58,641 nt of DNA from Thermodesulfovibrionia bacterium (GTDB lineage Bacteria; Nitrospirota; Thermodesulfovibrionia; UBA6902): contig CALZMZ010000003.1 in the NCBI GenBank assembly GCA_945788685.1, positions 1 to 58,641 of the forward strand, given 5' to 3'. Positions 1,317 through 49,577 of this stretch are shown one piece after another. The translations under genes were made by a program, and so were the position numbers. The notes beneath the pieces were generated by a model. It was not told the DNA's origin and did no database searches. It saw only the letters and a list, made by a program, of their open reading frames with translations. Position 1 is the stretch's first letter. Every line of letters begins with the position of its first letter.

Positions 1317-1338
1317 AAATACAGGGAGAGGATGGAAC

Positions 1339-2304: not shown

Positions 2305-2325
2305 TATGAAATTTGGAGGTTTTTA

Positions 2326-3675: not shown

Positions 3676-3678
3676 AGG

Positions 3679-4893: not shown

Positions 4894-4913
4894 ATAATGT
4901 AAAGGTTATTTAT

Positions 4914-5807: not shown

Positions 5808-5820
5808 ATGAATAATCCTA

Positions 5821-7314: not shown

Positions 7315-7491
7315 AAGAAAAGCAGAAATTGTGGGGCATTATAAAGCGCCAGGCAAAACCATCCTGGAGCGATGGCAGTTACTTAATGAAGGTCGGAGGC
7401 AAAGTTTTCTTAAGATTGCAGGTACTTTTGTGAAAACTCTGCATTTCGTTAACAGCAGGCCTGATATTGATATTTAGAGAGGAGAGATTTT

Positions 7492-8511: not shown

Positions 8512-8512
8512 G

Positions 8513-9397: not shown

Positions 9398-9469
9398 AGT
9401 AATTAACCGATATGATTCCCGCTAACAGTAAACATAAATATTTGATAGTAGTAAACCCAGGAGGAACGA

Positions 9470-10777: not shown

Positions 10778-10794
10778 TAGAAAGGATCGTTAAG

Positions 10795-12183: not shown

Positions 12184-12219
12184 TGTATTGAAAAGATTTA
12201 TTCGGCTTGGAGAAGTGAC

Positions 12220-31852: not shown

Positions 31853-32458
31853 ATGACCGATGAAGAAAAAGAAATAAAACAGGGTGAAGAGAGAAGAAGA
31901 TATTTCAGGGTTGATGATGTGATATCTGTAGTTGCAAATCCCATTCATGTTGATAAAGAAAAGAGTGATGAATTTGCAAAGACTATTGCTACATCCCGGG
32001 CATTTTCTCTTGTGGAAGGTCAGAATTTGGATGCAGCTGACAACGATAATTCAGTGCCTCTTGATTCTGACAATAAAAAATTATATGAAATGATGACAGA
32101 ACTGAAAGCAAAACTTGATTTTATCATCAACCAGTTTATGCTGGAAAAAGAAGGGTTGAATAATCCGGAAAAGAAGTTTGTTAACATCAGTGCGTCCGGA
32201 ATCAGGTTCACTGTCGATCATCCCGTGAATGAGGGTGACATAATGGATATAAAGCTTCTTTTGCCTACATACCCCCCCGTAGCTGTCTTTGCCTATGGAG
32301 AAGTATTAAGAGCAGTTCCTCTGGACAATGGAAAGTATGATGTAGCTCTTGAGTATCTCAACATGTCTGAATCAGTAAAAAACGAAATTATACAGTATGC
32401 CTTTGCGCATCAGCGGGATACAATCCGCAAAACAAAGAGCGCGGAGAATAATGAATAA
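31853..32458 (+). CDS. PilZ-domain c-di-GMP receptor with a long insertion between its binding motifs
   Basis: 201-aa ORF. RRxxxR is at residues 14-19 ('RRRYFR') and (D/N)xSxxG at residues 111-116 ('NISASG'). Its stop overlaps the downstream motA-like start (ATGAATAA). Confidence 0.75.
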   Translation: MTDEEKEIKQGEERRRYFRVDDVISVVANPIHVDKEKSDEFAKTIATSRAFSLVEGQNLDAADNDNSVPLDSDNKKLYEMMTELKAKLDFIINQFMLEKEGLNNPEKKFVNISASGIRFTVDHPVNEGDIMDIKLLLPTYPPVAVFAYGEVLRAVPLDNGKYDVALEYLNMSESVKNEIIQYAFAHQRDTIRKTKSAENNE

Positions 32459-33209
32459 AGCGAGCATATTAGGTGTATTAGTTGGTATCCTGGCCATCCT
32501 TGGTGGCAATGCGCTGGAAGGCGGAAATGCCGGATCCATATTGCAGGGATCTGCAGCGCTGATAGTTTTTGGCGGCACATTCGGCGCAACTGTTTTAAGC
32601 TTTTCGGGAAAAGACATTATGCTGGCAGCAAGGATGTGTAAAAGCGTATTTTATGATAATAAATTACTGCCAAATGAAGAGTCGATAATATCGGATATGG
32701 TGCAATTTGCTTCAAAAGCCAGAAAAAACGGGATACTCTCTCTTGATAGAGACATGTCCAGACTGCAGTATGGTTTTTTCAGAAGAGCTGTCAGGCTGGC
32801 AATAGATGGCATTGATCCAAATACTATCCAGACTACACTTGATCAGGAGAACAAGACCTTTGAGGAAGAAAGAGGCAGAGCAGCAAAAGTGTTTGAAGCT
32901 GCAGGCGGTTATGCTCCCACCATTGGAATTATAGGTGCGGTCCTTGGACTTATACATGTTATGGAAAATCTGAGTGACCCGACCAAGCTCGGCTCTGGCA
33001 TAGCTGTTGCATTCGTGGCAACCGTATATGGTGTAGCTTCTGCAAATCTCATACTTTTACCAATGGCAAAAAAAATGATCAACAATATTAAAGATGAAAT
33101 ATTTGTTAGAGAGATTATTGTGGAAGGCGTGTCAAGCATACAGGCAGGCAAGAGCCCTTTCTATCTGAAAGAGCATTTAAGCGCATTTGCCTCAAAACAT
33201 AAAAACTGA
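32451..33209 (+). CDS. MotA/PomA-family stator channel protein
   Basis: The protein is ~252 aa starting 'MNKASILGVLVGILAILGG'. The C-terminal TM pair with 'APTIGIIGAVLGLI' and 'AFVATVYGVASANLILLP' is typical of the MotA/TolQ/ExbB family. Confidence 0.85.
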   Translation: MNKASILGVLVGILAILGGNALEGGNAGSILQGSAALIVFGGTFGATVLSFSGKDIMLAARMCKSVFYDNKLLPNEESIISDMVQFASKARKNGILSLDRDMSRLQYGFFRRAVRLAIDGIDPNTIQTTLDQENKTFEEERGRAAKVFEAAGGYAPTIGIIGAVLGLIHVMENLSDPTKLGSGIAVAFVATVYGVASANLILLPMAKKMINNIKDEIFVREIIVEGVSSIQAGKSPFYLKEHLSAFASKHKN

Positions 33210-33252
33210 CAAAAAAGTCGATTTATTTTTATTACACTGTACAGCTATAGCT

Positions 33253-33960
33253 ATGAGAAAGAAAAGGAAAGAAGTTAAGAGTCATGAGAATGTTGAAAGG
33301 TGGATGGTGTCATACGCTGATTTTGTTACGCTGTTATTCTGTTTTTTTACGGCAATGTATGCTATCAGTAATGTAGACACCAACAAGCTTGAGAAATTTG
33401 CATCTTCCATGAAGACAGCGTTTAATGATGGCGAAAAAGTGAAAAATTTTTCGGTTATTGATGATGTCCAGGTTCTACTCCCTACTTCAGCGGAGACTGA
33501 ATCCAGCATAAGAGAGATGCTGAGTACCATCATAAAGGAATCTGATGGATCGCTAGATGTTAAAAGGGACAAAAGGGGGATTGTGATTGCAGTTGCCGAT
33601 AAGATGCTTTACAAATCAGGTTCGGCGGAACTGAAAGAAGATGCTGTAAACTTTCTTGATCAATTGGTACAACCGATTCTGGAGTATCCAAACCCGGTAA
33701 GGATTGAAGGGCACACAGACAATATTCCCATCCATACGAAATCGTTCCCTTCAAACTGGGAATTGTCAGCATCCAGGGCAATTAACGTCGCAAAATATTT
33801 TGTTGATAAACATGATGTTGATCCTGGAAGGATTACCTCCATAGGTTATGCAGAACACAAACCGGTTGCATCAAATGACAGCCCTGATGGACGTGCCAAA
33901 AACAGGCGGGTAGATATAGTTCTCTTAAGTGACAAGGAAAGCAGAAAAGAACCGTACTAG
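33253..33960 (+). CDS. MotB/PomB-family stator protein (OmpA-like C-terminus)
   Basis: 'WMVSYADFVTLLFCFF' is the plug/TM segment with the conserved Asp. The OmpA-like domain reads 'RIEGHTDNIP...SNWELSASRA...NRRVDIVL'. The start is set at the ATG giving 'MRKKRKE'. Confidence 0.85.
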   Translation: MRKKRKEVKSHENVERWMVSYADFVTLLFCFFTAMYAISNVDTNKLEKFASSMKTAFNDGEKVKNFSVIDDVQVLLPTSAETESSIREMLSTIIKESDGSLDVKRDKRGIVIAVADKMLYKSGSAELKEDAVNFLDQLVQPILEYPNPVRIEGHTDNIPIHTKSFPSNWELSASRAINVAKYFVDKHDVDPGRITSIGYAEHKPVASNDSPDGRAKNRRVDIVLLSDKESRKEPY

Positions 33961-33961
33961 A

Positions 33962-33996
33962 CAATTTCCAATTTCCAAGCTCAAATGCCAAATACA
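33962..33996. repeat. decaying period-7 tandem array (CAATTTC-like units)
   Basis: The units are caatttc caatttc caagctc aaatgcc aaataca. The array starts 2 nt after the motB-like stop codon. Confidence 0.5.
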
Positions 33997-34042
33997 TGCC
34001 CAACCTGACTCAATGTTATAATTCATACGCCTGATACGTTAG

Positions 34043-34155
34043 GTCATTCCCGCAGTTTTTTAAGCGGGAATCCCTAGTGATGCTAGTTTTCTGGATTCTC
34101 GATGCGAGTCTACGCGAGAGTCGCTCCGACCCGCTCAACTGACCGCGGGAATGAC
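34043..34155. repeat. small palindromic intergenic element with 11-nt terminal inverted repeats GTCATTCCCGC...GCGGGAATGAC
   Basis: The terminal inverted repeats were read directly. An inner 8-bp hairpin pairs ATTCCCGC with GCGGGAAT at 34046-34071. A related copy lies at 44970-45046. Confidence 0.55.
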
Positions 34156-34231
34156 GGGTATATGCAGTGGACATGTTATAAGTATTTTCAGCTCTTTATT
34201 AAATCTGACAGTTTCTGACAAAATAAGAACC

Positions 34232-35332
34232 ATGACTGTTCCGGAAAAAGACAACGAAACAGAACTGAAACAGCAGTCATTGCTGTTCAGACAGATTTTT
34301 AAGAGTCAGAAGTGGTGGCAGAATATTATTGATGCAATTACGGATTATCTTTTTGTAATTGATCAGGAATATAAAATACTGCGGACGAACAAGGCGTTTG
34401 CAAATTTGTTTGACAAGGATCCCGCCAATATAATTATGACACCATATTATGAACTTTTTGATCTGACCGGTCCTCATGAGTGGGCGACTCTCCTGATAGA
34501 AAAGGAAAGCTTACAGCCCAAGTCGGTCGAGAGGGAAATAAACGGTTCAACATATCTTATCAGTTCATATCCGATTTATTTTGATGAGCATGATGCGACC
34601 GTTTATATCATGAAGGATATCACTGAAACGAGAAGATTGAAGGACCAGGTGTATCACCTTGATAAGTTATCATCGCTGGGTACGTTGACATCAGGTGTTG
34701 CACATGAGATCAATAATCCTTTGACCGGCATTATCGGGTATACGGAAATGCTCTTAATGAAGAACAAGGATGACACTCATAAAAAATACCTTCAAAATGT
34801 CTATGACTCTGCAATCAGGTGCAAGAAAATAGTTGAGAACATGCTGACCTTTTCGAGACAGCACAGAGCAGAGAAAAGCATAGAAAAGGTCAATGACCTT
34901 ATAAACAGGACTGTTGAGCTTCATGAATACTGGCTTAAATCTACAAACATCAAGATAATAAGGGACTACGGAGATGTCCCGGGTATTTCTATAGACCGCC
35001 AGCAGTTCCAGCAGGTCATCCTTAATCTTCTGATTAATGCTGAACATGCCATTTCAGAGAGAAATGTCAAAGGTGAAATTGCTTTTAGAACATCTTACAA
35101 TGAGAAAACAGGCAGCGTTAATATAATAGTTTCTGATAACGGTTCAGGAATACCACCTGATGTCCTTGCAAAAATATTTGATCCGTTTTTCACTACCAAA
35201 CCTGTAAATAAGGGGACAGGTCTTGGTCTTTCCATAGCCCACGGTATCATTGCTGAACAGGGTGGAACAATAGAGGTTGAGAGTAGTATGGGAAAAGGTA
35301 CTTCATTTATCATTAACCTTCCATGCTCGTAA
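34232..35332 (+). CDS. cytoplasmic PAS sensor histidine kinase
   Basis: Motifs are H-box 'GVAHEINNPLTGIIGYTEML', N-box 'LLINAEHAI', G1 'DNGSGIP' and G2 'GTGLGLSIAHG'. No TM segment is apparent. The start is set at ATG 34232, because the ORF-track ATG at 34151 lies inside the repeat element. Confidence 0.85.
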   Translation: MTVPEKDNETELKQQSLLFRQIFKSQKWWQNIIDAITDYLFVIDQEYKILRTNKAFANLFDKDPANIIMTPYYELFDLTGPHEWATLLIEKESLQPKSVEREINGSTYLISSYPIYFDEHDATVYIMKDITETRRLKDQVYHLDKLSSLGTLTSGVAHEINNPLTGIIGYTEMLLMKNKDDTHKKYLQNVYDSAIRCKKIVENMLTFSRQHRAEKSIEKVNDLINRTVELHEYWLKSTNIKIIRDYGDVPGISIDRQQFQQVILNLLINAEHAISERNVKGEIAFRTSYNEKTGSVNIIVSDNGSGIPPDVLAKIFDPFFTTKPVNKGTGLGLSIAHGIIAEQGGTIEVESSMGKGTSFIINLPCS

Positions 35333-35655
35333 CAGTTCAGGTTTACAATTGAAGTGAAATGATAACCTGAAGTGTTAAATGTTTGCAAAGGCTTTTCCTT
35401 TTTCGGCTGATAAATTACAAATAAATTACAAGATCCAAATTCCAAAAAATGAACTACCGCCCGACTATGGATAATAAGACAGTAGTCTTATGTTCCGGAG
35501 CGTTACCTTAACCGGTTCTCCTGGTCTTCTCACGTTTTGATAATTGGTGCTTATTTGATATTTGTATTTTATTATTTGTTATTTATGCCCTGAGAAAGCA
35601 GGAAAAGCGTTTACAGACATTGAATGTGCATCTAGTGTTCAGAACTATTGAAGCA

Positions 35656-36681
35656 TTAGAAAACCGGATTCCATCCTTTTTTATCAATTACAGGTGAAAA
35701 GTCGTTTTCAGAAGCATCCCCGGTCCGGCTTTCCTTGGGGGAGGATGGAGCAGTTTCAGGCTTTTTATCGATTTTCGGTTCTTCGATAACAACCTTGATT
35801 GAATCTTTATCGTTATTACCCCTGGCCGTAACTGTTGATTTGTCTATTATTTGCAATAGTTCCTTTGACATTTTCTTTGCAGGGTCATTGTCGTTTATTA
35901 ACGGGTTTTTAGGTTTCTTCTTCTGGGGGAACTTAAGAATGATGCTTATCCTCCTGTTTCGGGCATCATTCGGGTCCTCCTTTATGAGTGGATCAGTGTC
36001 AGCAAACCCTGCTACACTGACAAGTCTTTCAGGATCGAGCCCATTAGCTTCAAGTTCTCTTCTCGCTGAAGATGCCCTTTCAGTGGAAAGTTCCCAGTTA
36101 CTGTAATTTTTTCCTGCAAAGGGCAGAGCGTCTGTATGTCCCTCAATGCTGACCCGATTTTTAATGGATTTGATATTTTCAGCAATTATGCTCAGGATCT
36201 CGCTGGCCTTTGAAGTCATTTTATTACTTCCGCGCTGGAACATGGTACTGCCTTCATTGTCTGTAAGGTGTATCCTAATTCCATCCCGGACTTTCTCTAT
36301 TAACACCTGGTCTTCAAGATCACCCAGTTTGTCTGAAATCGCTTTACTTAAGCTTTCCTGAATTTCATCAGCAGCATCATCATCTCCCTCCCGTTCTATC
36401 AATACCTTTTCATTTCCCTGTCCAGCTGTATTGAATAAATCTGCTTCTGCACCGCCAAGGAAGGAACTTCCGCTTTCTGAATAGAGGCTGAAATTCTTAT
36501 AATATTCAGATATACGTGCCCTTTTCTCGTCAGAGACCATTGAAAGAAGCCATAAAAGCAGAAAAAAGGCCATCATGGCAGTGACAAAATCAGCGTAAGC
36601 TACTTTCCATGCTCCGCCATGATGACCGCCACCTGTAACTTTCTTTATTTTCTTTATAATAACAGGCTTGCGATTGCTCAT
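35656..36681 (-). CDS. motB: flagellar stator protein MotB with Lys/Pro-rich C-terminal extension
   Basis: 341-aa ORF with 'AWKVAYADFVTAMMAFFLLLWLL' and the OmpA-like 'SIEGHTDALPF...SNWELSTERA...NRRISIIL'. Its start overlaps the motA stop. Confidence 0.85.
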   Translation of the reverse strand: MSNRKPVIIKKIKKVTGGGHHGGAWKVAYADFVTAMMAFFLLLWLLSMVSDEKRARISEYYKNFSLYSESGSSFLGGAEADLFNTAGQGNEKVLIEREGDDDAADEIQESLSKAISDKLGDLEDQVLIEKVRDGIRIHLTDNEGSTMFQRGSNKMTSKASEILSIIAENIKSIKNRVSIEGHTDALPFAGKNYSNWELSTERASSARRELEANGLDPERLVSVAGFADTDPLIKEDPNDARNRRISIILKFPQKKKPKNPLINDNDPAKKMSKELLQIIDKSTVTARGNNDKDSIKVVIEEPKIDKKPETAPSSPKESRTGDASENDFSPVIDKKGWNPVF

Positions 36682-37526
36682 GACCTGAGGGATTCTTCAA
36701 GTTCTGTGAAACCCGGCTTTGCTACGGAAGGGATGACCCGTCTCGCATATTCAACAGCTATTTGCGGTGCAGCGCCTCCAACGAATGACACCAATGCTAT
36801 CTTGATTACTTTAAAAGCGAGCATATCTTCTTCAGCAATATGCTCAAGATTTGTGCCGATAGGTCCGACAAATCCATAACTTAAAAGAACACCGAGAAAT
36901 GTCCCGACCAGTGCCGCACCAATGCTTGCTCCTAATATTTCGGGCGGTTCGCTGACCTTTCCCATAGTTATTACGACGCCTAGAACAGCTGCAACAATTC
37001 CCAGGGCAGGAAGTCCATCCGCAATCTTATTAATACTGTGAGCAGGAATCAGTGCCTCATGATGATGGGCCTCCATCTCGATTTCCATAACATCATCAAG
37101 CTCATGAGGTGTGACATTGGTCGATATTATTACTTTGAGATTATCGCACAGGTAATTCAGGGCATGATGATTTTTGAGAAGGCTCGGGTACTTGGTGAAT
37201 ATGGGACTTTCAGCAGGATTTTCAATATCACCTTCAATGGCTATAAGTCCCTCTTTTCTCATTTTTGAAAAAACCGCATTCAGCACACCTAAAATTTCAA
37301 GGAATTCTCCCTTGCTGGTACTCTTTGATGAAAGCACTCTCATCATGTTCTTAAGCACCAAGCCAAGAATTTTCCCCGGTGACGAAATAATGAATGCTCC
37401 TACTGCGGCCCCACCGATTATAAGCAGTTCCGTAGGTTGAAACAGAACATGCAGGTTACCGTGATGCAGGACGTAACCACCAATAACAGATCCAAAAACA
37501 ACAATCAGGCCTATTATTACGAGCAT
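36678..37526 (-). CDS. motA: flagellar stator protein MotA
   Basis: 282-aa ORF starting 'MLVIIGLIVVFGSVIGGYVLHHGNL'. 'GLPALGIVAAVLGVVITM' and 'GAALVGTFLGVLLSYGFVGP' are classical MotA motifs. SD 'aggaagg' is present. Confidence 0.9.
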   Translation of the reverse strand: MLVIIGLIVVFGSVIGGYVLHHGNLHVLFQPTELLIIGGAAVGAFIISSPGKILGLVLKNMMRVLSSKSTSKGEFLEILGVLNAVFSKMRKEGLIAIEGDIENPAESPIFTKYPSLLKNHHALNYLCDNLKVIISTNVTPHELDDVMEIEMEAHHHEALIPAHSINKIADGLPALGIVAAVLGVVITMGKVSEPPEILGASIGAALVGTFLGVLLSYGFVGPIGTNLEHIAEEDMLAFKVIKIALVSFVGGAAPQIAVEYARRVIPSVAKPGFTELEESLRS

Positions 37527-38163: not shown

Positions 38164-38607
38164 ATGGCAAAAAAGAAAGCAGCGAAGAAGAAGGCAGTAA
38201 AGAAAAAAGCAGCAAAGAAAAAGGCAGCTAAGAAGAAAGTAGCTAAGAAGAAAACAGCCAAGAAAAAAACCACTAAGAAAAAAGCCGCAAAGAAAAAGGT
38301 TGCAAAGAAGAAAGTAGCGAAGAAGAAAACTGCAAAGAAAAAAGCCGCTAAAAAGAAGAGAAAACCTAATCCTGCATTTATGAGGCCTGTGAGTATCAGT
38401 GATGCACTGGCACAGATAGTCGGCAGCAAACCTATTCCCAGGACCGAGGTCACAAAAAAGCTCTGGGCATACATTAAGAAGAACAAGCTGCAGGACTCTG
38501 TCAATAAGAGAATGATCAACGCTGATGCCAAGTTGAAAGCAGTTCTCAAGAAAGCCAAGGTATCAATGTTTGAGATGACCAAACTGGTCAGTAAGCATCT
38601 CAGCTAG
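38164..38607 (+). CDS. SWIB/MDM2-domain protein with histone-H1-like Lys/Ala repeat N-terminus
   Basis: 147-aa ORF with SD 'aggagg'. The N-terminus is ~12 tandem A(A/V)KKK pentapeptides. The C-terminal 'RPVSISDALAQIVGSKPIPRTEVTKKLWAYIKKNKLQD' is SWIB-like. Confidence 0.8.
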   Translation: MAKKKAAKKKAVKKKAAKKKAAKKKVAKKKTAKKKTTKKKAAKKKVAKKKVAKKKTAKKKAAKKKRKPNPAFMRPVSISDALAQIVGSKPIPRTEVTKKLWAYIKKNKLQDSVNKRMINADAKLKAVLKKAKVSMFEMTKLVSKHLS

Positions 38608-40254: not shown

Positions 40255-40340
40255 GCCGGAGTGGTGGAATGGCAGACGCGGTGGACTCAAAATCCATTGT
40301 CCGCAAGGACGTGCGGGTTCAACTCCCGCCTCCGGCACCA
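40255..40340 (+). tRNA. tRNA-Leu (anticodon CAA), CCA encoded
   Basis: The acceptor stem pairs GCCGGAG with CTCCGGC. The anticodon loop is CTCAAAA, the variable arm is long, and the T-arm is GCGGGTTCAACTCCCGC. The sequence closely resembles E. coli tRNA-Leu(CAA). Confidence 0.9.
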
Positions 40341-40367: not shown

Positions 40368-40823
40368 ATGATTAATACCATCAAACAGTTTTTTGAAAAA
40401 AACATACAGACGTCGCCTGATTCTTCAGAAAAAATCTCAGAGCATTCTCTTCAACTTGCCACCGCATCATTGATGATCGAGATGATGAGAGCTGATGCTG
40501 AGATCAGTGATGAAGAGCAAAGCTCAATAACAAATGCCATAAAGTCGAAATTTAACCTGAGTGAAGAAGAGACGGAAAATATAATAAAGCTTGCTGAAGA
40601 GGAGATATCCAGAGCAACCGGGTATTTTGAATTTACCTCGCTGATTAATAAAGGATATACATATGATCAGAAGCTGAAGGTTATTGAGCATCTCTGGGAA
40701 GTAGCATTTTCGGATGCGGTTCTTGATAAATATGAAGAGCACATGGTCCGTAAAATAGCAGACCTTATACATGTTTCTCATAAAGATTTTATTGATGCAA
40801 AATTAAGAGTACGCAATAAATAA
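40368..40823 (+). CDS. TerB-family (tellurite-resistance-like) protein
   Basis: 151-aa ORF. '[21 protein letters not shown]' and '[30 protein letters not shown]' form the two-helix-pair pattern of the TerB fold. Confidence 0.6.
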
Positions 40824-40852: not shown

Positions 40853-41047
40853 TGAGGGTCCAAGGGGTCAAGGATTCAAGTGAAATATAAAAAATATCAG
40901 AACAGACATCGTCTGGAATTTACTCAGTCATTAAATGAAACAGTTTTATAATAGATAATATATAAAGGAAGTTTAGTCAGGACGTAAAAAGTACTTTATA
41001 ATTGTTAAAAGTATTCACTTCAACCCTTGAATCCTCGAATCCTATTC
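40853..41047. repeat. inverted pair of period-8 arrays (TCAAGGNN / NNCCTTGA) flanking an AT-rich spacer
   Basis: The left arm is 'tccaaggg gtcaagga ttcaagtg' (40859-40882). The right arm is 'cacttcaa cccttgaa tcctcgaa tcctattc' (41016-41047), which is the reverse complement of the same unit family. Confidence 0.5.
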
Positions 41048-42149: not shown

Positions 42150-42545
42150 ATGTATCCTGATGACCTTAAATACCACAAAGAGCACACATGGGTAAGAGTA
42201 GACGGTAACAGGGCAACAGTTGGAATTACATTTTATGCACAGGAGACTCTTGGAGACATTGTGTATATTGATGAACCGGATATTGATTCATCTGCCGAAT
42301 CCGATATAGAGTTTACCCAGATTGAGTCTACAAAAGCCACTTCAGCAGTTATCAGTCCTGTAAGCGGAAAAGTAATTGAGTTTAATGAAGAGCTCACCGA
42401 TTCACCGGAAATAATTAATGAAGATCCATATGGCAAAGGATGGATAGTTGTAGTTGAGCTGGAAGATGAATCCGAGCTTGACAAGCTGCTGGATGCAGGA
42501 TCGTATGAAAAGTATGTGGAAGAAGAGGTGAAAGAGAAAGAATGA
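42150..42545 (+). CDS. gcvH: glycine cleavage system protein H
   Basis: 131-aa ORF with 'HTWVRVDGNRATVGITFYAQE'. The lipoyl-Lys motif is 'ESTKATSAVISPVSGKV', and 'INEDPYGKGW' is present. SD 'aaggaggg' lies upstream. Confidence 0.9.
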   Translation: MYPDDLKYHKEHTWVRVDGNRATVGITFYAQETLGDIVYIDEPDIDSSAESDIEFTQIESTKATSAVISPVSGKVIEFNEELTDSPEIINEDPYGKGWIVVVELEDESELDKLLDAGSYEKYVEEEVKEKE

Positions 42546-43936
42546 AAATAACTGTACTGGGAGCCGGACCCGGAGGATATGTTGCTGCAATCAAGGCTGC
42601 ACAGCTTGGCGCTGAAGTTACGGTAATTGAAGATGGCGAAGTAGGTGGTACCTGTCTGCACTGGGGATGCATTCCTACCAAAACTCTCATAGCATCAGCC
42701 GAGGTTCTTCATAAAATGAAAAATGCAAAGAATTATGGTCTTGAGCTTGAAGGCACGGTTACTCCCAATATAGAAAAAATAGTTGACAGAAAGAACAAGG
42801 TTGTAAGCACACAGACAAAAGGGATACGCGGACTCTTTAAATCATGGGGTGTCAGTTTAATTGAAGGTCGTGGAGTCATTATTGATCCAAAAACAATCCA
42901 GGTGACGCTTAAGGACGGATCAACACAGGATGTTAATACTGACAAAATAATAATTGCAACCGGATCAAGACCGGCCCAGATTCCTGTTTTTCCCTTTGAC
43001 GGTAAAAGGATAATTTCCAGTGATAATGCAGTAAATCCTGATTCAATTCCTGAAAGTTTGCTTATCGTTGGCGCAGGGGTAATAGGGTGTGAGTTTGCGT
43101 TCATATACAAAGAATTCGGTGCTGAAGTGACCATGGTTGAAATGATGCCAAACGCAGTATCAACAGAGGATGAAGAGATCTCACAGATTCTGGAGAGAGA
43201 ATTGAAGAAAAACAAGATCAAGCTCCTTACCAATACAAGTGTAGAAAAAGTGAATGTCAAAGATAATGGTGTTTCTGTGCAGCTTGCCGACGGAAAATCC
43301 ATAGAGGCTGAAAAGGTGCTTGTATCGATCGGACGTGCTGTTAACAGTGAGAACATCGGACTTGAAGATGTGGGTGTTAATAAGGGACAGCGTGGAGACA
43401 TTATTGTAGATGAAAAACTTCAGACAAGCGTTGACGGCATTTATGCAATTGGAGATGTTATTGGTGGTATAATGCTTGCCCATCTTGCTTCAAAGGAAGG
43501 TATCGTGGCTGCGGAAAATGCCATGGGAGGAAACTCAAAGGTCAACTATGATGTTGTGCCCGCTGCCATCTTTACAAGCCCTGAAATAGGTTCTGTAGGT
43601 CTGAGAGAAAAGCAGGTCGCTGAAAAAGGCATAAATTATAAAGTAGGAAGATTTCAGTTCAGGGGACTGGGAAAGGCCCATGCCATGGGTGAAATTTCCG
43701 GACTGTTTAAGATAATTTCCGAACAGGAGTCAGATAAAATACTCGGTGCTCATATCATCGGTGCTCATGCATCTGACCTGGTTCATGAGATTGCAGTAGC
43801 CATGGAAAAAGGTCTGACCGTAAAGGACATCGCACATACCATTCATGCGCATCCAACTCTTGCAGAGGGAATCATGGAAGCTGCAGAAGATGTCCATGAC
43901 ATGGCAATTCACTCACCGAAGCGCGTAAGTTCGTAA
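42542..43936 (+). CDS. lpdA: dihydrolipoyl dehydrogenase
   Basis: 464-aa ORF with FAD motif 'VLGAGPGGYVAA' and redox disulfide 'GGTCLHWGCIPTK'. The C-terminal 'HAHPTLAE' is present. The start overlaps the gcvH stop (ATGA). Confidence 0.9.
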   Translation: MKITVLGAGPGGYVAAIKAAQLGAEVTVIEDGEVGGTCLHWGCIPTKTLIASAEVLHKMKNAKNYGLELEGTVTPNIEKIVDRKNKVVSTQTKGIRGLFKSWGVSLIEGRGVIIDPKTIQVTLKDGSTQDVNTDKIIIATGSRPAQIPVFPFDGKRIISSDNAVNPDSIPESLLIVGAGVIGCEFAFIYKEFGAEVTMVEMMPNAVSTEDEEISQILERELKKNKIKLLTNTSVEKVNVKDNGVSVQLADGKSIEAEKVLVSIGRAVNSENIGLEDVGVNKGQRGDIIVDEKLQTSVDGIYAIGDVIGGIMLAHLASKEGIVAAENAMGGNSKVNYDVVPAAIFTSPEIGSVGLREKQVAEKGINYKVGRFQFRGLGKAHAMGEISGLFKIISEQESDKILGAHIIGAHASDLVHEIAVAMEKGLTVKDIAHTIHAHPTLAEGIMEAAEDVHDMAIHSPKRVSS

Positions 43937-43968
43937 GATCGTAAGCGCGTAAGATATTAAGTTCACTT
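43921..43968. repeat. period-8 tandem array (NNNCGTAA units) spanning the lpdA stop codon
   Basis: The units are gcgcgtaa gttcgtaa gatcgtaa gcgcgtaa gatattaa gttcactt. The lpdA TAA (43934-43936) is the end of unit 2. Confidence 0.7.
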
Positions 43969-44048
43969 CCCCACTTCCTCACTAAAGGCAGATTTTATGT
44001 TAATTTATATGTCAGCGAGTTATATAATTTATTAAGAGAAAAAATGTT

Positions 44049-44885
44049 ATGACAACCCGTGAAATCAGTGCAGGAAACATAAAAATTGGAAACAGCAATC
44101 CTCTTGCATTCATTGCAGGCCCCTGTGTAATTGAAAGCGGGGAGTCTACTCTTAAAGCTGCTCATCAAATTAAAGAAATATCAGAACGTCTGAATGTTCC
44201 GGTTATTTTTAAAAGTTCATATGATAAGGCAAATAGAACTTCACTGGCGTCATTCAGGGGGCCGGGTATTAAAGAAGGGCTGGCCATACTGGACAGGGTA
44301 AAGAAAGAAACCGGAATGGCCGTGCTCTCTGACATACATTCCGTAGATGAGATTGAGAAGGCGGCTGAGGTGCTTGACATAATACAGATACCGGCTTTTT
44401 TATGCCGACAGACAGAGATAGTGCTGGAGGCTGCAAGGACCGGCAGAACCGTCAATGTCAAGAAGGGACAGTTTCTGGCGCCGCCGGATGTGGAAAACAT
44501 AATCGAGAAAATAACATCTGAGAATAACTTCAACATAATCATTACTGAAAGAGGCACTTCATTCGGATATAATAATCTGGTTGTGGATATGAGGGGCATA
44601 CCAGTCATGCAGGGTTTTGGATTCCCTGTAGTATTTGATGCTACTCACAGTGTGCAGCTTCCGGGAGGACAGGGCGGCAGTTCAGGGGGAGAGCGCGAAT
44701 TCATAGAGACCCTTTCCAGATCTGCTGTAGCTGCAGGCTGCGATGCAGTGTTTATGGAGGTCCATGAAGACCCTGATAACGCTCCCTGTGATGGTCCTAA
44801 TATGCTGCCTCTTGGGAGATTCTCTGATCTTGCCGGAAGATTAATGGAACTTCATAAGATGATTAAAAAATGGGAATCCGGTTAA
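44049..44885 (+). CDS. kdsA: 3-deoxy-8-phosphooctulonate (KDO-8-P) synthase
   Basis: 278-aa ORF with 'FKSSYDKANRTS', 'VFDATHSVQLPGG' and 'IQIPAFLCRQT'. Confidence 0.9.
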   Translation: MTTREISAGNIKIGNSNPLAFIAGPCVIESGESTLKAAHQIKEISERLNVPVIFKSSYDKANRTSLASFRGPGIKEGLAILDRVKKETGMAVLSDIHSVDEIEKAAEVLDIIQIPAFLCRQTEIVLEAARTGRTVNVKKGQFLAPPDVENIIEKITSENNFNIIITERGTSFGYNNLVVDMRGIPVMQGFGFPVVFDATHSVQLPGGQGGSSGGEREFIETLSRSAVAAGCDAVFMEVHEDPDNAPCDGPNMLPLGRFSDLAGRLMELHKMIKKWESG

Positions 44886-44969
44886 TATTTAATGGTTATT
44901 AGTTATTATATTAAATAATTTTGCTGCTGAGACCGCAGAATATTTAAAATTTGTATATTGGTTTTCAGT

Positions 44970-45046
44970 GTCATTCCCGCTTGTCGGGAATCATCTAGCC
45001 TGATGGTTCATGTTTGTATGAATGATGCTGGACAGGCCAGAATGAC
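44970..45046. repeat. second copy of the GTCATTC...GAATGAC palindromic element family
   Basis: The left end is GTCATTCCCGC with the hairpin ATTCCCG-cttgt-CGGGAAT. The right end is CCAGAATGAC. It is intergenic, upstream of kdsD. Confidence 0.4.
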
Positions 45047-45103
45047 AGAAATATTGAACTGCGGAATAAACAGCAGGATATTTAATTGATAAATATTATA
45101 TGA

Positions 45104-46081
45104 ATGATGGATATGAATGAAATTATTGATGAAGCAAAGAATATACTCAAGATAGAGGCCGAAGCTGTTGAAGCGCTTATCAACAGAATAGACGAGTCTT
45201 TTGTTGAAGCCATAAATATTATGTATACCTGCTCCGGTAAGGTAGTCGTTACCGGCATGGGAAAGTCAGGCATTATTGGTAAAAAGATTGCCGCCACACT
45301 TGCTTCTACAGGTACACCTGCACTGTTTCTGAATCCGGCTGAAGGTAGTCACGGTGATGTAGGGATGGTATCAAAAGGGGACGTCATGCTGGCAATTTCA
45401 AACAGCGGGGACACTGACGAGATAACCAGATTATTACCTACCCTGAAGAGACTGGATATAAAGATAGTAAGCATGACCGGCAGCAAAGGATCATTACTTG
45501 CCAGGTCTTCAGATGTATCTCTTGATATATCGGTCAATGAAGAGGCATGTCCCATGGGTCTGGCACCAACCGCTTCTACCACTGCGACACTTGCAATGGG
45601 AGATGCACTGGCAATTTCTCTTCTCAATAAAAAAGGATTTACCGAGGAGGACTTCGCACTGTTTCATCCGGGAGGTCATCTGGGCAAAAGGCTTCTGCTG
45701 ACTGTCGAAGACCTTATGCATACGGGTGATGCCGTGCCTGTTGTCCTTAATGATATCCTTATGAAAAATGCGATAATCGAAATATCATCAAAAAGACTGG
45801 GTATTACTGCTGTTGTGAATGATGACCGCATTCTGGAGGGTGTCATTACAGACGGCGACCTGAGAAGAGGACTGGAAAAATGGGGTGAGGAATTTTTCTC
45901 CTTAAAAGCCGGTGATGTTATGACGTACAATCCAAAGATCCTGAGAAAGAACATGCTTGCCGCCAAAGCGGTCTCAATGATGGAAAAGTACTCAATCACG
46001 GTTCTCATGGTGACCGATGATGATAATAATATTGAAGGGATTCTTCATCTGCATGATCTGCTGAAGGCAGGAATTGTTTAA
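45104..46081 (+). CDS. kdsD: arabinose-5-phosphate isomerase (SIS domain + two CBS domains)
   Basis: 325-aa ORF with the SIS motif 'VVVTGMGKSGIIGKKIAATLASTGTPA'. The C-terminus has tandem CBS-like segments. Confidence 0.9.
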   Translation: MMDMNEIIDEAKNILKIEAEAVEALINRIDESFVEAINIMYTCSGKVVVTGMGKSGIIGKKIAATLASTGTPALFLNPAEGSHGDVGMVSKGDVMLAISNSGDTDEITRLLPTLKRLDIKIVSMTGSKGSLLARSSDVSLDISVNEEACPMGLAPTASTTATLAMGDALAISLLNKKGFTEEDFALFHPGGHLGKRLLLTVEDLMHTGDAVPVVLNDILMKNAIIEISSKRLGITAVVNDDRILEGVITDGDLRRGLEKWGEEFFSLKAGDVMTYNPKILRKNMLAAKAVSMMEKYSITVLMVTDDDNNIEGILHLHDLLKAGIV

Positions 46082-46084
46082 AAT

Positions 46085-46119
46085 AATTACGAATTACGAA
46101 TTACAAATTTCAAATAATG
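46085..46119. repeat. heptanucleotide tandem array (AATTACG x5, degenerating)
   Basis: The units are aattacg aattacg aattaca aatttca aataatg. The array fills the kdsD-kdsC spacer, and the last unit contains the kdsC ATG. Confidence 0.8.
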
Positions 46120-46644
46120 GATAAAAAAATTATAGAAAAGGCCAGCAAAATTAAACTGCTTATCCTTGATGTAGATGGTGTTATGACAGACGGCAGTATC
46201 ATTCTTGACAATGAGGGGAATGAACTGAAGAGGTTTCATGTAAGGGATGGTCATGGTATTAAAATGCTTGGCAAGGCCGGTATTGAGACCGCTATCATAA
46301 CAGGCAGGCAATCAAAAGTAGTTGAGTTGCGGGCAAAAGAACTCGGGATAAAGGATGTATATCAGAAGATATTTGTTAAATCAGAAATATATGAGCAGTT
46401 ACGCAAAAAATATGAGTGTGAGAATGAAAACATTGCTTTTATGGGGGACGACGTTGTAGATCAGGAACTTTTTAAAAGGGCAGGTCTGACTGCTGCTCCG
46501 GCAGATGCTGAAGAATCTGCAAAAAAATGGGCCGATATAGTATCCGGCAAAAATGGCGGCAGGGGAGCGGTCAGGGAATTCGCAGATATTATTCTTAAAG
46601 CAACAGGCAAGTGGGAACAGGTCTCCGGGGAATCCCTTGGTTAA
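46117..46644 (+). CDS. kdsC: KDO-8-phosphate phosphatase (HAD, YrbI family)
   Basis: 175-aa ORF with HAD motif I 'LLILDVDGVMTDG'. 'AIITGRQS' and 'AFMGDDVVD' are present. Confidence 0.85.
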   Translation: MDKKIIEKASKIKLLILDVDGVMTDGSIILDNEGNELKRFHVRDGHGIKMLGKAGIETAIITGRQSKVVELRAKELGIKDVYQKIFVKSEIYEQLRKKYECENENIAFMGDDVVDQELFKRAGLTAAPADAEESAKKWADIVSGKNGGRGAVREFADIILKATGKWEQVSGESLG

Positions 46645-47179
46645 TCTGCCCACCATAATTACTGTCAGCAGAATCATCATAATTCTTCCATTTGTTCTTG
46701 TTGCTCCCCAAAGTCCGTTTTGGGGCGCCATACTCTTTTCAATAGCAGCCATTACTGACTACTTTGACGGATACTTTGCGCGCAAAACAAAACAGGTCAC
46801 GAAATTCGGAATTCTCCTTGATCCCATAGCTGACAAGCTCCTGGTAATGTCAGCATTAATTCTGTTTGTAGACATGGAATTGATACCGGCCTGGATAGCC
46901 ATAGTAATCATTACGCGGGAGTTCATTGTTACCGGATTGAGAATAGTTGCATTAACAATGGACATAGTCATACCTGCTGAAATGGGTGGTAAAGTCAAAG
47001 TGACCGCTCAGATTGCATCCATAATAACGCTTCTGGTTGACAGGACATTTATTGCCATTGATTTTTATGGTTTGGGAATTCTGTTACTCTGGATTGCCAT
47101 GATTGTGGGACTTATTTCAGGTATTCAGTATTTTATTTTATTCTGGAAAACGATAGACATGACAGACAGGGATTCTTGA
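46637..47179 (+). CDS. pgsA: CDP-diacylglycerol--glycerol-3-phosphate 3-phosphatidyltransferase
   Basis: The CDP-alcohol phosphatidyltransferase motif DGxxAR-x8-G-x3-D-x3-D appears as 'DGYFARKTKQVTKFGILLDPIAD'. The start is placed at TTG 46637 ('LVNLPTIITVSR'), overlapping the kdsC stop. The ORF-track ATG at 46553 would overlap kdsC by 92 nt. Confidence 0.8.
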   Translation: MVNLPTIITVSRIIIILPFVLVAPQSPFWGAILFSIAAITDYFDGYFARKTKQVTKFGILLDPIADKLLVMSALILFVDMELIPAWIAIVIITREFIVTGLRIVALTMDIVIPAEMGGKVKVTAQIASIITLLVDRTFIAIDFYGLGILLLWIAMIVGLISGIQYFILFWKTIDMTDRDS

Positions 47180-47247
47180 GAAGTCAGAAGTAAGAAGTCA
47201 GAAGTAAGAAGTAGGAAGTGAGAAGTGAGAAGTAACGAGTGACAGTT
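47178..47247. repeat. heptanucleotide tandem array (NNGAAGT x10)
   Basis: The units are gagaagt cagaagt aagaagt cagaagt aagaagt aggaagt gagaagt gagaagt aacgagt gacagtt. The array begins inside the pgsA TGA. Confidence 0.9.
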
Positions 47248-47267
47248 TCCATTAAAGAGAGTTTTAA

Positions 47268-47774
47268 ATGAATACAGACTTACTCTTATATATGTTGGTT
47301 CCAGCAGCATTTCTGCTGGGCTCTGTTCCATTTGGACTTATTTTTACGAGAGGATCGGGAGTAGATCTCAGAAGCACGGGCAGCAGGAATATCGGTGCAA
47401 CAAATGTATTAAGAAGTGTCGGTAAAATACCCGCTATACTTACCCTGCTGTTTGATGGATTAAAGGGTGCTGTTCCACTCATCATGTGCAGATATCTTCT
47501 CAGCATGAACTATCCGGAGCTTTCAGCCGGGGAGCTGTGGATGTCTGTTATTGGTTTGACTGTTGTACTGGGTCACATGTATTCGGTCTTTTTAGGATTT
47601 GAAGGTGGTAAAGGGGTTGCCACAGGCATAGGTGTGATAGCTGCCTATAGTCCATCAGTGTCAATTATATTGATAATAATATGGATACTGGTCGCAATAA
47701 TTTCAAAATACTCCTCTCTTGCTGCGCTGGTTTCAGTTGCTGCACTTGGCCGGGAAAGAATCGAGGATGGGTAA
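47268..47774 (+). CDS. plsY: glycerol-3-phosphate acyltransferase PlsY (unusually short C-terminus)
   Basis: 168-aa ORF with 'GSRNIGATNVLR', 'DGLKG' and 'GHMYSVFLGFEGGKGVATG'. It ends 'AALGRERIEDG' directly at the next heptamer array. Confidence 0.8.
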   Translation: MNTDLLLYMLVPAAFLLGSVPFGLIFTRGSGVDLRSTGSRNIGATNVLRSVGKIPAILTLLFDGLKGAVPLIMCRYLLSMNYPELSAGELWMSVIGLTVVLGHMYSVFLGFEGGKGVATGIGVIAAYSPSVSIILIIIWILVAIISKYSSLAALVSVAALGRERIEDG

Positions 47775-47841
47775 GAAGAAAGAAGTGGGAAGTGAAAAAT
47801 GAGAGGTAAGAGGTGAGAAGTACGAGGTGATGGGTAGTGCG
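47772..47841. repeat. heptanucleotide tandem array (TNNGARG x10)
   Basis: The units are taagaag aaagaag tgggaag tgaaaaa tgagagg taagagg tgagaag tacgagg tgatggg tagtgcg. The first unit is the plsY TAA and the last contains the queC GTG. Confidence 0.9.
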
Positions 47842-48622
47842 TAAAAAGGCTATAGTTCTGTTAAGCGGTGGACTTGATTCTGCTACTACTTTTGCGGTGG
47901 CAATTGCAGAAGGGTATGAGGTTTATGCGCTCAGCTTTGATTATGGTCAGAGACATAAAGTGGAACTTGATGCATCCCGGCGCATAGCTGAATATTATAA
48001 AGTAGATAAACATCTTGTTATTGATATCAATTTAAGAGGGATCGGCGGGTCTGCATTAACTTCAGATATTGAGGTTCCTAAGAACAGACAACAGAGCACA
48101 GAATACAGAACGCAAGACACAATTTACAGATCACAGATTACAGATCTTAGATTACAGAAAGAAACACAAATTCCTGTTACCTATGTCCCTGCCAGGAATA
48201 CAATATTCCTTTCATTAGCACTGGCATGGGCGGAGACGTTGAAAGCGTCTGATATTTTCATCGGGGTCAATGCAATAGACTACAGCGGCTATCCTGATTG
48301 CAGACCTGAATATATACAGGCATTTGAAGATATGGCCAATCTTGCGACAAAGGTTTCGGTGGAAGGAGATATCAAGTTTGAAATCCGCACACCGCTTATT
48401 GTACTTTCCAAGGCTGAGATTATAAAAAAGGGGAGGGAACTTGGCGTTGACTATTCGCTTACCTGGAGCTGTTATGATCCGCAAGAATCAGAGAACAGAG
48501 CACAGAACACAGAACATAGACAAGAATACATTCCATGTGGCAAATGTGACAGTTGTATTCTCCGGGCCAGGGGCTTTGAAGAAGCCGGATTATCAGATCC
48601 TCTGAAACCTCCTGTGGAGTGA
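47837..48622 (+). CDS. queC: 7-cyano-7-deazaguanine synthase QueC carrying two in-frame repeat-derived insertions
   Basis: 261-aa ORF with a GTG start and the PP-loop '[12 protein letters not shown]'. '[13 protein letters not shown]', '[11 protein letters not shown]' and the Zn-type cysteines 'SCY...CGKCDSC' are present. Confidence 0.85.
48084..48167. repeat. heptanucleotide array (ACAGANN x12, 84 nt) inside queC, in frame
   Basis: The units are acagaca acagagc acagaat acagaac gcaagac acaattt acagatc acagatt acagatc ttagatt acagaaa gaaacac. The array encodes '[28 protein letters not shown]'. Confidence 0.85.
48481..48529. repeat. second heptanucleotide array (ACAGARC-like, ~6-7 units) inside queC
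   Basis: The units are gcaagaa tcagaga acagagc acagaac acagaac atagaca agaatac. The array encodes '[16 protein letters not shown]', between 'SCYDP' and 'CGKCDSC'. Confidence 0.75.
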
Positions 48623-48625
48623 ATA

Positions 48626-48646
48626 TATCGAAGTTGATCTTCGATA
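48626..48646 (+). terminator. hairpin immediately after queC (weak terminator candidate)
   Basis: An 8-bp perfect stem pairs TATCGAAG with CTTCGATA around a 5-nt loop, 4 nt after the stop. The downstream U-tract is poor. Confidence 0.3.
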
Positions 48647-48887
48647 GACGGAATTATATTATTTGCATTTTCAGTCCCTCACCACAGGCCCACACAAATC
48701 TTATTGAGCAGATCGACAAATTAGAGGTTTTTAAAACATTGATTATATTTTTCAATTGCACAAATAGATCATTTAGTGATAAATTATAGATGTAGGCGTT
48801 TTCTATCGTTGATCATTTAAAAAGCTCTCTTTCATAAATAAAATACTGATGTTAAGTGAACCAGACTGTGATTGAGTCTGAAACATT

Positions 48888-49577
48888 ATGAAAAACAGAA
48901 GAAACTATTACCGCATACTTCAGGTTCAGCCGGATGCTCCTCTTGAAATAATCCGTGCAAGTTATCGCACGATTATGAGGGAATTGATGGGGCACCCGGA
49001 TTTTGGAGGTGATCATCATGATGCCATTATTTTTAATGAAGCTTATGCGACGTTGAGTGATAGTGTTAAACGTGCTGAATATGACAAAAAATATTTAAAA
49101 TATATTTCTAATAAAACAGCAGATGAATTAAATATCAGAAAAGAGTCTTCTACAAATATTAACGACCCTCTCCGAACAAGACCTTTTACCCGTCAAACAA
49201 AAGATGTTAAGGACAGTCAGGATTATACGGACCTGAAATCAAAAAAAACTCAAAAGGCATATTGTGAGAACTTTTATCGTGCTGTTAATCGTGTGAAAAT
49301 GAAAGGAACAGAGCTGTACTATTTCACCTCTTCAAATAAAAAACGGCAAGCAAAAATACTGGACCTGTCTCCAAAAGGAATTCGTTTTACCAGCACAGAG
49401 AAATTGACTCGTGAGTCAAATATTAAGATAGGATGTTCTTTATTTAAAGCTGAAGCTGAGGTGGTAAATTATAATCAGGACCTCTCAAGTGACAGGCCCG
49501 TTTATTCAGTTGGGGCCCGCTTCCTCAAGGTTAAGTTTAAGAATCAGACAAGCTCTTTTTATTCTAAATTCGTATAA
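48888..49577 (+). CDS. J-domain (DnaJ-like) - PilZ fusion protein
   Basis: 229-aa ORF. The N-terminal J domain reads 'NYYRILQVQPDA...MGHPDFGGD...AYATLSD..KRAEYD' with HPD. The C-terminal PilZ motifs are RxxxR ('YRAVNR') and DxSxxG ('DLSPKG'). Confidence 0.7.
   Translation: MKNRRNYYRILQVQPDAPLEIIRASYRTIMRELMGHPDFGGDHHDAIIFNEAYATLSDSVKRAEYDKKYLKYISNKTADELNIRKESSTNINDPLRTRPFTRQTKDVKDSQDYTDLKSKKTQKAYCENFYRAVNRVKMKGTELYYFTSSNKKRQAKILDLSPKGIRFTSTEKLTRESNIKIGCSLFKAEAEVVNYNQDLSSDRPVYSVGARFLKVKFKNQTSSFYSKFV

Follow-up and report, generated by a model that had tools for sequence, protein, structure and literature searches.

Heptanucleotide Tandem Arrays at Gene Junctions and inside queC in a kdsD-kdsC-pgsA-plsY-queC Operon of the Nitrospirota

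In a Thermodesulfovibrionia bacterium (phylum Nitrospirota), the operon kdsD-kdsC-pgsA-plsY-queC carries head-to-tail arrays of 7-nucleotide (nt) units, both between its genes and in frame inside queC. The operon lies on the 58,641-nt stretch of contig CALZMZ010000003.1 that we analyzed in full and call the window. We consider it probable that these arrays are heptanucleotide simple sequence repeats (SSRs) of the same type as the short tandemly repeated repetitive (STRR) sequences of cyanobacteria, and that they are a lineage trait of Thermodesulfovibrionia-like Nitrospirota, generated by replication slippage and template switching and kept wherever a change of length is tolerated. Slippage is the most likely origin of the arrays, rather than a new regulatory device. 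The same sites are occupied in distant relatives, where the units are different; the site persists and the unit turns over.

A preliminary description, made from the letters of the window alone, had placed arrays in three spacers of this operon. Direct reading and phasing in sevens find all three, and Tandem Repeats Finder (TRF) recovers the same arrays:

46085..46119, + strand: array 1, AATTACG x5, which fills the kdsD-kdsC spacer and has the kdsC ATG (46117) in its last unit
47177..47246, + strand: array 2, TRAGAAG x10, whose first triplet is the pgsA TGA
47772..47841, + strand: array 3, TRAGARG x10, whose first triplet is the plsY TAA and whose last unit contains the queC GTG (47837)

Phased in sevens, array 1 reads AATTACG AATTACG AATTACA AATTTCA AATAATG; array 2 reads TGAGAAG TCAGAAG TAAGAAG TCAGAAG TAAGAAG TAGGAAG TGAGAAG TGAGAAG TAACGAG TGACAGT; and array 3 reads TAAGAAG AAAGAAG TGGGAAG TGAAAAA TGAGAGG TAAGAGG TGAGAAG TACGAGG TGATGGG TAGTGCG. 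The arrays had been said to occupy entire spacers, which is so for arrays 1 and 3; array 2 takes up ~70 of the 88 bases of the pgsA-plsY spacer and is followed by ~21 nonrepeat bases up to the plsY ATG at 47268. The unit had been said to differ from array to array, and here only array 1 stands apart, arrays 2 and 3 belonging to one unit family (TRAGAAG/TRAGARG). Two further arrays are translated within queC:

48084..48167, + strand: ACAGANN x12 (28 amino acids [aa]), in frame in queC, at QueC loop site 1, after EVPK
48484..48525, + strand: ACAGAAC family x6 (14 aa), in frame in queC, at QueC loop site 2

In sequence order, these five main arrays hold 5, 10, 10, 12, and 6 units of exactly 7 nt. 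Adjacent copies match at 68-94% of positions (TRF), and the arrays are thus imperfect, not long perfect tracts.

That the period of 7 is constant and specific is borne out by counts of tandem-period excess, both in the window and in 967 kb comprising the window and related loci. Sliding autocorrelation of the window, with a tract defined as at least 18/28 matches and Markov shuffles as control, finds 10 period-7 tracts where the shuffles give 0.6. Periods 4-6, 9-11, and 13 are at background (0-2 tracts); smaller excesses appear at periods 8 (3 tracts), 12 (6 tracts), and 15 (4 tracts), and the 7 tracts found at period 14 re-detect the same arrays. Across the 967 kb, period 7 yields 60 arrays and shuffled sequence 0, with 9 arrays at period 6, 3 each at periods 8 and 9, and 0 at periods 10-14. 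The period-stratified scan that the preliminary description had proposed genome-wide, run here on the window and related loci, returns a period-7 excess together with an enrichment at junctions: ~25 of the 60 arrays lie at junctions, though junctions make up ~13% of the sequence.

The remaining 35 of the 60 stand in frame within genes, 24 of them in queC, so the phenomenon is not confined to intercistronic spacers as had been supposed; within the window, 7/10 tracts are intergenic. Nor are arrays typical of spacers, since most intercistronic spacers of the window have none. At its ~30 measurable junctions, the period-7 score is at least 15/21 in this operon, 15 and 14 at the motB and histidine kinase junctions, and 4-13 at the rest. 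A general role in intercistronic spacers was rejected on this ground, the 15 junctions of the gene string at 69-25352 and most others being at background. Over the window and related loci, array density is 3.0 per kb in the kdsD-kdsC spacer, 0.93 per kb in queC coding sequence, 0.4-1.2 per kb in the other operon spacers, and 0.03 per kb in all remaining sequence, and the 221 kb of lpdA, kdsA, kdsD, kdsC, pgsA, and plsY coding sequence in the window and its relatives contain no arrays. Outside queC, the in-frame arrays of relatives fall in kdsB (L071; related loci are numbered with the prefix L), priA (L036), the gene for a TGS-domain GTPase (L043), and a tetrapyrrole methylase gene and the gene adjacent to it (L037). 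All of the in-gene arrays are free of stop codons.

Relatives were collected by a genome scan with KdsD, by a metagenome scan with KdsC alignment, which added 80 loci, and by exact-protein look-ups, which added L095 and L096. The matches of the KdsD scan are metagenome-assembled genomes (MAGs) of Thermodesulfovibrionia/Nitrospirota (L009 [CP070632.1], 90% identical; L001, 89%; L002-L007, 69-80%), and these relatives keep the order lpdA-kdsA-kdsD-kdsC-pgsA-plsY-queC. An exact-protein look-up with the KdsC of the window, aimed at other assemblies of the same species, returned no match; the nearest QueC sequences are 78-79% identical, the closest relative by QueC being L096. The contig of L015 and L016 (PVMS01089720.1) is a palindromic assembly artifact, each half being 100% identical to L017 in opposite orientations, and the use of L015 and L017 as a population pair was rejected for that reason.

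The kdsD-kdsC junction illustrates the turnover of units. Its arrays are built from AATTACG/A in the window, L001, and L009, the latter two carrying homologues of array 1; from AAGGGTC in L004, L026, and L077-like loci; from TGACCAA in L031; from AAGTTCA in L030 and L036; from AAGTCAG in L058; and from AAAAACT in L029. In the distant loci L073 and L080, the array is translated as an N-terminal extension of KdsC. Because array-free relatives have only 2-12 nt at this place (L003, with TAATG, and L021, L022, L044, and L057), the junction arrays are best read as insertions into an originally tight junction. Downstream in L096, the pgsA-plsY spacer consists of (TAAGAAC/TAAAAAC) x9 and the plsY-queC spacer of (TAAGAAC) x4, each running from stop to start; arrays 2 and 3 thus have orthologues in L096 that differ slightly in unit and also in copy number. 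Unit number varies among the orthologous arrays of the window, L096, L009, and L001. By DNA alignment, the 3' half of array 3 corresponds to homologous sequence in L009, L001, and L017, namely, the final plsY codons and the queC Shine-Dalgarno (SD) sequence, and these relatives already read AGGTGAT AGGTGAT at that place. The window, L096, L095, and L048 each use one unit family at several neighboring sites, and the same units recur in separate genes and contigs: AAACTCC in L004, L037, and L048 (with the near-variant AACTCCG in L071) and AAAAGTT in five loci.

The arrays inside queC provide the clearest record of length change. An alignment of QueC from 35 loci resolves two insertion sites, site 1 after EVPK and site 2 between the conserved SCYDP cysteine and the PCGxCDSC cysteine motif (PCGKCDSC in the window), and both insert stretches are missing from Bacillus subtilis QueC (3BL5). 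In the AlphaFold (AF2) model of QueC, residues 72-118 and 224-228 have a pLDDT below 50, and 128 residues at 90 or above form a confident core. On this model, the inserts are tolerated, disordered surface loops, through which the open reading frame (ORF) runs in every case: queC is intact in 35/35 loci. Among 62 homologues, the inserts are hypervariable and visibly periodic at 7 aa (TEHRTQN, RVKSQEL, NSKLQTP). We compared insert lengths in the 14 closest QueC homologues by a chi-square test on length modulo 7. Lengths at site 1 form the series 8/15/22/29 and 11/18/25/32 aa (p = 4e-6; moduli 5, 6, 8, and 9 not significant) and lengths at site 2 the series 10/17/24, 16/23, and 25/32 aa (p = 5e-4), p values that overstate independence because the sequences are related, whereas the differing lengths within a series are real. 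Judged from these alignments, the steps of 7 aa (21 nt, or three heptamers) are the mark that unit slippage leaves once it has been filtered for reading frame. The ACAGAAC unit of the window queC is stop-free in all phases and has AGAAC in common with the spacer unit TAAGAAC of L096. Slipped-strand variability, raised earlier as one possible role, is thereby supported on the evolutionary scale, in QueC inserts that change by three units at a time and in orthologous arrays that differ in unit number.

These same data bear on the idea that the arrays form a phase-variable contingency locus, in which gain or loss of 7 nt would switch queC off and on and changes in the spacers would switch the downstream genes. 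A 7-nt unit does shift the frame in a coding region, and phase variation by heptamer SSRs is known for the hmw genes of Haemophilus influenzae (PMC12721329). Frameshifted queC alleles, however, number 0/35, the units within arrays are imperfect, and length differences come in multiples of three units, which implies selection against frameshifts; we regard phase variation as very improbable.

The gene upstream of array 3 has itself lost sequence. The PlsY of the window is 168 aa long, against 206-214 aa in all relatives, through an in-frame internal deletion of ~35 aa (residues ~161-195 of L009) with its junction at ~47747/47748: the window protein ends ...VSVAAL/GRERIEDG before the stop, where L009 reads ...VSVALL-PLIY...IIVKHKTNINNLLS-GRESKIGNKK... 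before its own. In an alignment with Aquifex PlsY (5XJ5), the counterpart of the lost segment is ...ALIIYRHRENINRLL..., and the last transmembrane segment disappears with the deletion, as does the conserved KH..NI..LL motif. There is no second plsY copy within the window. Judging by this comparison, the window plsY may be a defective gene, unless the deletion is a mis-assembly.

That possibility is one of the points in favor of treating the arrays themselves as assembly artifacts, the others being that the window is a MAG contig and that the related contig of L015 is a palindromic artifact. The arrays, though, are 35-84 nt long, the queC reading frames are preserved, and orthologous arrays are seen in independent assemblies from NCBI, JGI, ENA, and Logan, all of which makes an artifact extremely unlikely.

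Under the slippage reading that we favor, replication slippage and template switching in a 7-nt register would amplify a short local sequence at a place that tolerates insertion and would then keep re-homogenizing the array. Arrays would survive only where insertions and deletions are tolerated, namely, at formerly tight gene junctions and in the two disordered QueC loops. In arrays 2 and 3, the unit is a stop codon (TGA/TAA) followed by GAAG/GAGG, and the junction arrays may be local amplifications of such a stop-plus-SD heptamer (in array 3, T[GA]A + GAGG). An amplified heptamer of this composition would explain why the arrays start at the stop codon and why array 3 is SD-like; and because 7 is not a multiple of 3, arrays 2 and 3 present stops in all three frames. 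An overlapping or 2-12 nt junction would in this way become an unstructured linker of 35-90 nt, loosening direct translational coupling, and at queC, array 3 would also supply several standby SD sites.

The purine-rich arrays had been described as reiterating SD-like motifs upstream of start codons. A hybridization scan finds this in array 3, which has four sites complementary to the anti-SD (-9.1, -7.2, -11.7, and -13.3 kcal/mol), the last of them standing 5-6 nt ahead of the GTG; in array 2, a strong site ~46 nt upstream is joined by a weaker one ~38 nt upstream, and array 1 has none. Most units at the kdsD-kdsC junction of relatives are not SD-like. From the scan of the three arrays, the idea of SD reiteration holds only for queC. 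As RNA, the window arrays are predicted to be unstructured, with a minimum free energy of ~-1 to -6 kcal/mol in 4/5 regions; the array 2 region (121 nt) reaches -12.1 kcal/mol, which is weaker than its shuffles (z = +2.0), and the other z-scores lie between -1.9 and +0.5, the lowest reflecting a weak hairpin inside the queC site 1 array and the rest starting at about -0.2. Rfam gives no match at E <= 1 in 43500-49000, including no preQ1 riboswitch, and its sole match in the whole window is a tRNA; an intrinsic terminator scan of the spacers finds no terminator-like site overlapping an array. The operon arrays of the window are A/purine-rich on the sense strand, and across loci, a sense-strand purine excess is present in 15/16 spacer arrays and 18/23 queC arrays of this operon.

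Could the arrays instead be cis-regulatory modules that selection maintains in the polycistronic mRNA? In that case they would serve as ribosome standby or reinitiation tracks or as protein platforms, A/purine-rich linkers perhaps bound by a single-strand-binding protein with a 7-nt footprint (e.g., a cold-shock protein), and the proportions of KdsD, KdsC, PgsA, PlsY, and QueC would be tuned by the number of units. The retention of sites over deep divergence, the purine/A bias of the sense strand, the lack of structure, and the four anti-SD sites of array 3, the last correctly spaced, all agree with such a role. So do precedents: for TAACTGA repeats, MacGregor 2015 (PMC4679880) suggested a role in regulating translation and heptamer binding of the CspB type, and the (ATCTTTC)n repeats of H. 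influenzae hmw show that expression can be set by a heptamer SSR in a 5' untranslated region (5'-UTR) (PMC12721329). The units are not conserved in sequence, however, so no sequence-specific factor fits; many relatives are array-free, with junctions of 2-12 nt; most junctions of the window have no arrays; similar arrays occur in coding loops of QueC, KdsB, PriA, and a GTPase; and arrays 1 and 2 lack a properly placed SD. On balance, selection for regulation seems to us an unlikely origin.

Inverted pairing of arrays raises a different alternative. Neighboring arrays are reverse-complementary in 5/18 pairs versus 1% of random pairs, which is what template switching would produce. In L095, both QueC sites (1371-1448 and 1761-1862) carry (AAGAGTT)4-loop-(AACTCNN)4, with left arms identical over 27 nt and RNA folding z-scores of -5.0 and -4.1; a shared composite of this kind points to copying from one site to the other or to a tiny mobile element. 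The kdsB gene of L071 contains an in-frame (GTAACGA)n/(TCGTTAC)n hairpin at 5272-5362 (z = -3.7). These hairpins, together with the recurrence of identical units (AAACTCC, AAAAGTT) in different genes and contigs, would suit arrays that either constitute or descend from minute mobile hairpin elements resembling miniature inverted-repeat transposable elements (MITEs) or small dispersed repeats (SDRs). Such elements, made of inverted heptamer arrays, would insert at preferred sites, also in frame in genes, and the single-arm arrays of the window would be their decayed remnants. A 2008 study by Elhai et al. reportedly found small mobile repeats nested in the heptamer arrays of Nostoc. Against this stand the single-armed state of the window arrays, which align to orthologous junction sequence of relatives, and a length that varies by unit quanta rather than by presence or absence of a whole element; we saw neither terminal repeats nor target-site duplications nor an associated transposase, and template switching explains the inverted pairs equally well. 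We find an origin in mobile hairpins distinctly improbable.

Several observations nonetheless count against slippage as the whole account. At the same sites, periodicity persists across proteins that are only 55-60% identical, a longer life than one would expect of a purely neutral SSR. No mechanism explains why arrays are so strongly concentrated in this operon and in queC, and the orientation bias and the placement beside start codons might be due to function instead of a filter. A test for concerted evolution, comparing unit similarity within and between loci, was not significant (p = 0.24). The loci are also phylogenetically related, and their counts are not independent events.

The wider setting of the arrays in the window is as follows, first the genes of the operon and those preceding it and then the other tracts:

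42542-43936, + strand: lpdA (NCBIfam)
44049-44885, + strand: kdsA (NCBIfam)
45104..46081, + strand: kdsD, arabinose-5-phosphate isomerase (NCBIfam NF008141/TIGR00393)
46117..46644, + strand: kdsC, KDO-8-phosphate phosphatase (KDO, 3-deoxy-D-manno-octulosonate; NCBIfam TIGR01670)
46637..47179, + strand: pgsA (NCBIfam TIGR00560), with a probable TTG start at 46637 taken from tblastn and the junction listing
47268..47774, + strand: plsY, 168 aa (NCBIfam profile match 4-150 of 196)
47837..48622, + strand: queC, 7-cyano-7-deazaguanine synthase, an intact ORF (NCBIfam TIGR00364)
43921..43984, + strand: period-8 pair in the lpdA-kdsA spacer, CGTAAGNN x5 and then CACTTCCN x3 (TRF, phasing)
44882..44919, + strand: decayed heptamer tract TTAATNN x5, starting in the kdsA TAA (44883-44885), best 16/21
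33957..33998, + strand: weak ATTTCCA-like heptamer tract that begins at the motB stop (MotB confirmed by Pfam)
35412..35446, + strand: weak AAATTAC-like tract downstream of a histidine kinase gene
35548..35588, + strand: weak TATTTGT-like tract in a convergent intergenic region, approximately the reverse complement of the 35412 tract

The probable pgsA start overlaps the kdsC stop by 8 nt, as it does in 6/7 relatives, and the lpdA TAA (43934-43936) falls within the CGTAAGNN x5 tract. Decayed tracts had been reported near 33962-33996 and ~35537-35585; both are present, at 33957-33998 and 35548-35588, and both are weak, with TRF scores of 34-36. Five tracts go beyond that earlier list (43921-43984, 44882-44919, 35412-35446, 48084-48167, and 48484-48525).

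Some further observations concern these surroundings. The pyrimidine repeat CACTTCCN x3 (43961-43984) is complementary to array 2 (47195-47240), with an RNAduplex energy of -24.6 kcal/mol that ranks it third among 2377 scanned windows, strong and not unique; long-range pairing of the two within the operon transcript is possible on this prediction. At ~40855-40885, downstream of an ORF at 40368-40823, lies a weak AAGGGTC-like heptad tract (GAGGGTC CAAGGGG TCAAGGA TTC), whose AAGGGTC unit also builds the kdsD-kdsC arrays of L004 and L026; a tRNA-Leu(CAA) lies close by at 40255-40340. Two separate motA-motB pairs (32397-33960, + strand; 35656-37526, - strand) flank the gene for the PAS histidine kinase (34151-35332). 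A tandem repeat of 15 nt/75 nt at 38167-38358 encodes a lysine-rich (AKKK)n N terminus (ORF 38164-38607, + strand), and the protein, with a C-terminal domain that looks SWIB-like by eye, may be a histone-like DNA-binding protein. Some metagenome contigs among the related loci are very rich in heptamer arrays, with 8 and 6 in ~20 kb: L084 holds 8 arrays (3467-14607), among them a perfect GAGTTCA x17 at 13966-14084, and L037 holds 6 (248-5774).

Heptamer repeats are known from several bacterial lineages, and the cyanobacterial STRR sequences are the nearest in kind. Mazel et al. are said to have described them in 1990 as heptanucleotides of heterocystous cyanobacteria, and their consensus units are CCCCAAT, TTGGTCA, and CAACAGT. 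The likeness pointed out in the preliminary description is sound: both are head-to-tail arrays of ~4-25 copies of 7-nt units, with several unit families per genome, found between genes, as most STRR arrays are, and even inside operons, and without an established function. Some relatives even use cyanobacterial units in tandem, CCCCAAT/AATCCCC in L037 (780-818) and TGACCAA, the reverse complement of TTGGTCA, in L031 (1151-1197); the L037 tract is AATCCCC x5, a rotation of CCCCAAT. The window has none of the canonical consensus units in tandem, its own units being AATTACG, TRAGAAG, and ACAGAAC. The host also differs, being one of the Nitrospirota rather than a heterocystous cyanobacterium, as does the large share of arrays translated in frame. 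In Anabaena PCC 7120, GGGGATT/GGGGACT arrays include one between pecE and pecF (Rehm et al. 2015, PMC4692102), an example of placement inside an operon.

Direct repeats of TAACTGA occur in marine Beggiatoaceae, some cyanobacteria, and some Bacteroidetes (MacGregor 2015, PMC4679880). They resemble the present arrays in standing directly upstream of start codons, in a forward unit that holds stop codons, in occasional copies within ORFs in the stop-free orientation, in the shorter, repeat-free spacers of relatives, and in having a translational role that has been proposed and not shown. They differ in having one dominant unit where we find many; neither strand of the window or of loci L001-L094 contains TAACTGATAACTGA, nor is there a TAACTGA tandem. 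The GGGAATC arrays of Xanthomonas are flanked by the same genes in two species and vary in length and sequence, and slippage has been invoked for them (Rehm et al. 2015, PMC4692102). Occupation of the same gene junctions in related species and inverted pairs are likewise features of our arrays, but those of Xanthomonas are G-rich and form G-quadruplexes, whereas the window arrays are A/purine-rich, without G-runs, and unstructured. Geobacter metallireducens carries GGGACCG x4 elements at 49 intergenic and intragenic sites.

Heptanucleotides are the most abundant class of long SSRs in many bacteria, and polymerase slippage has been proposed as the cause, according to the accounts of Mrazek et al. 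2007 given in PMC4679880 and PMC4692102. The excess of period 7 over periods 5, 6, 8, and 9 and the intergenic enrichment follow the prokaryote pattern reported in those accounts; in contrast to that pattern as they give it, 7-nt arrays here persist in frame by way of three-unit quanta. In H. influenzae, the (ATCTTTC)n repeats of hmw1A/hmw2A act through a 5'-UTR hairpin and RNase III, as shown experimentally (PMC12721329). There, too, the transcript carries a heptamer array ahead of a gene, and the hairpin resembles the inverted pairs of L095, L071, and L001. The hmw repeats, however, are perfect and hypervariable and control an adhesin, whereas the window arrays are imperfect and single-armed and accompany housekeeping genes. 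The hmw1 SSR adjoins yrbI, which is kdsC, the gene that borders array 1 as well; this is probably coincidence (PMC12721329).

One more ambitious alternative would join several of these threads. A lineage-specific mechanism, whether a dedicated enzyme or a tiny mobile hairpin element, might install and maintain the arrays as tunable RNA modules that set operon stoichiometry, with the units shared with cyanobacteria reflecting horizontal spread. We hold this to be rather improbable. If true, arrays would be placed at defined sites, including in frame in queC, kdsB, and priA, and would act as standby or reinitiation tracks or as RNase III hairpins governing the stoichiometry of KDO, phospholipid, and queuosine synthesis.

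With slippage as the most likely origin, these arrays extend to the Nitrospirota a heptanucleotide-repeat biology that is known from cyanobacteria, Beggiatoaceae, Xanthomonas, and Geobacter and is still without explanation there; our literature search found no paper linking heptamer repeats with Nitrospirota. The less familiar features are the conserved hot spots in QueC, the three-unit quanta, and the in-frame hairpin pairs. For annotation, there is a warning in that odd low-complexity inserts in QueC and long operon "spacers" are repeat-derived. Dozens of lineages also offer a clean natural series, the same two QueC loops and gene junctions filled with different units, that could be used to study the dynamics of slippage, the effect of arrays on translational coupling, and the way in which coding regions absorb units that are not a multiple of three.

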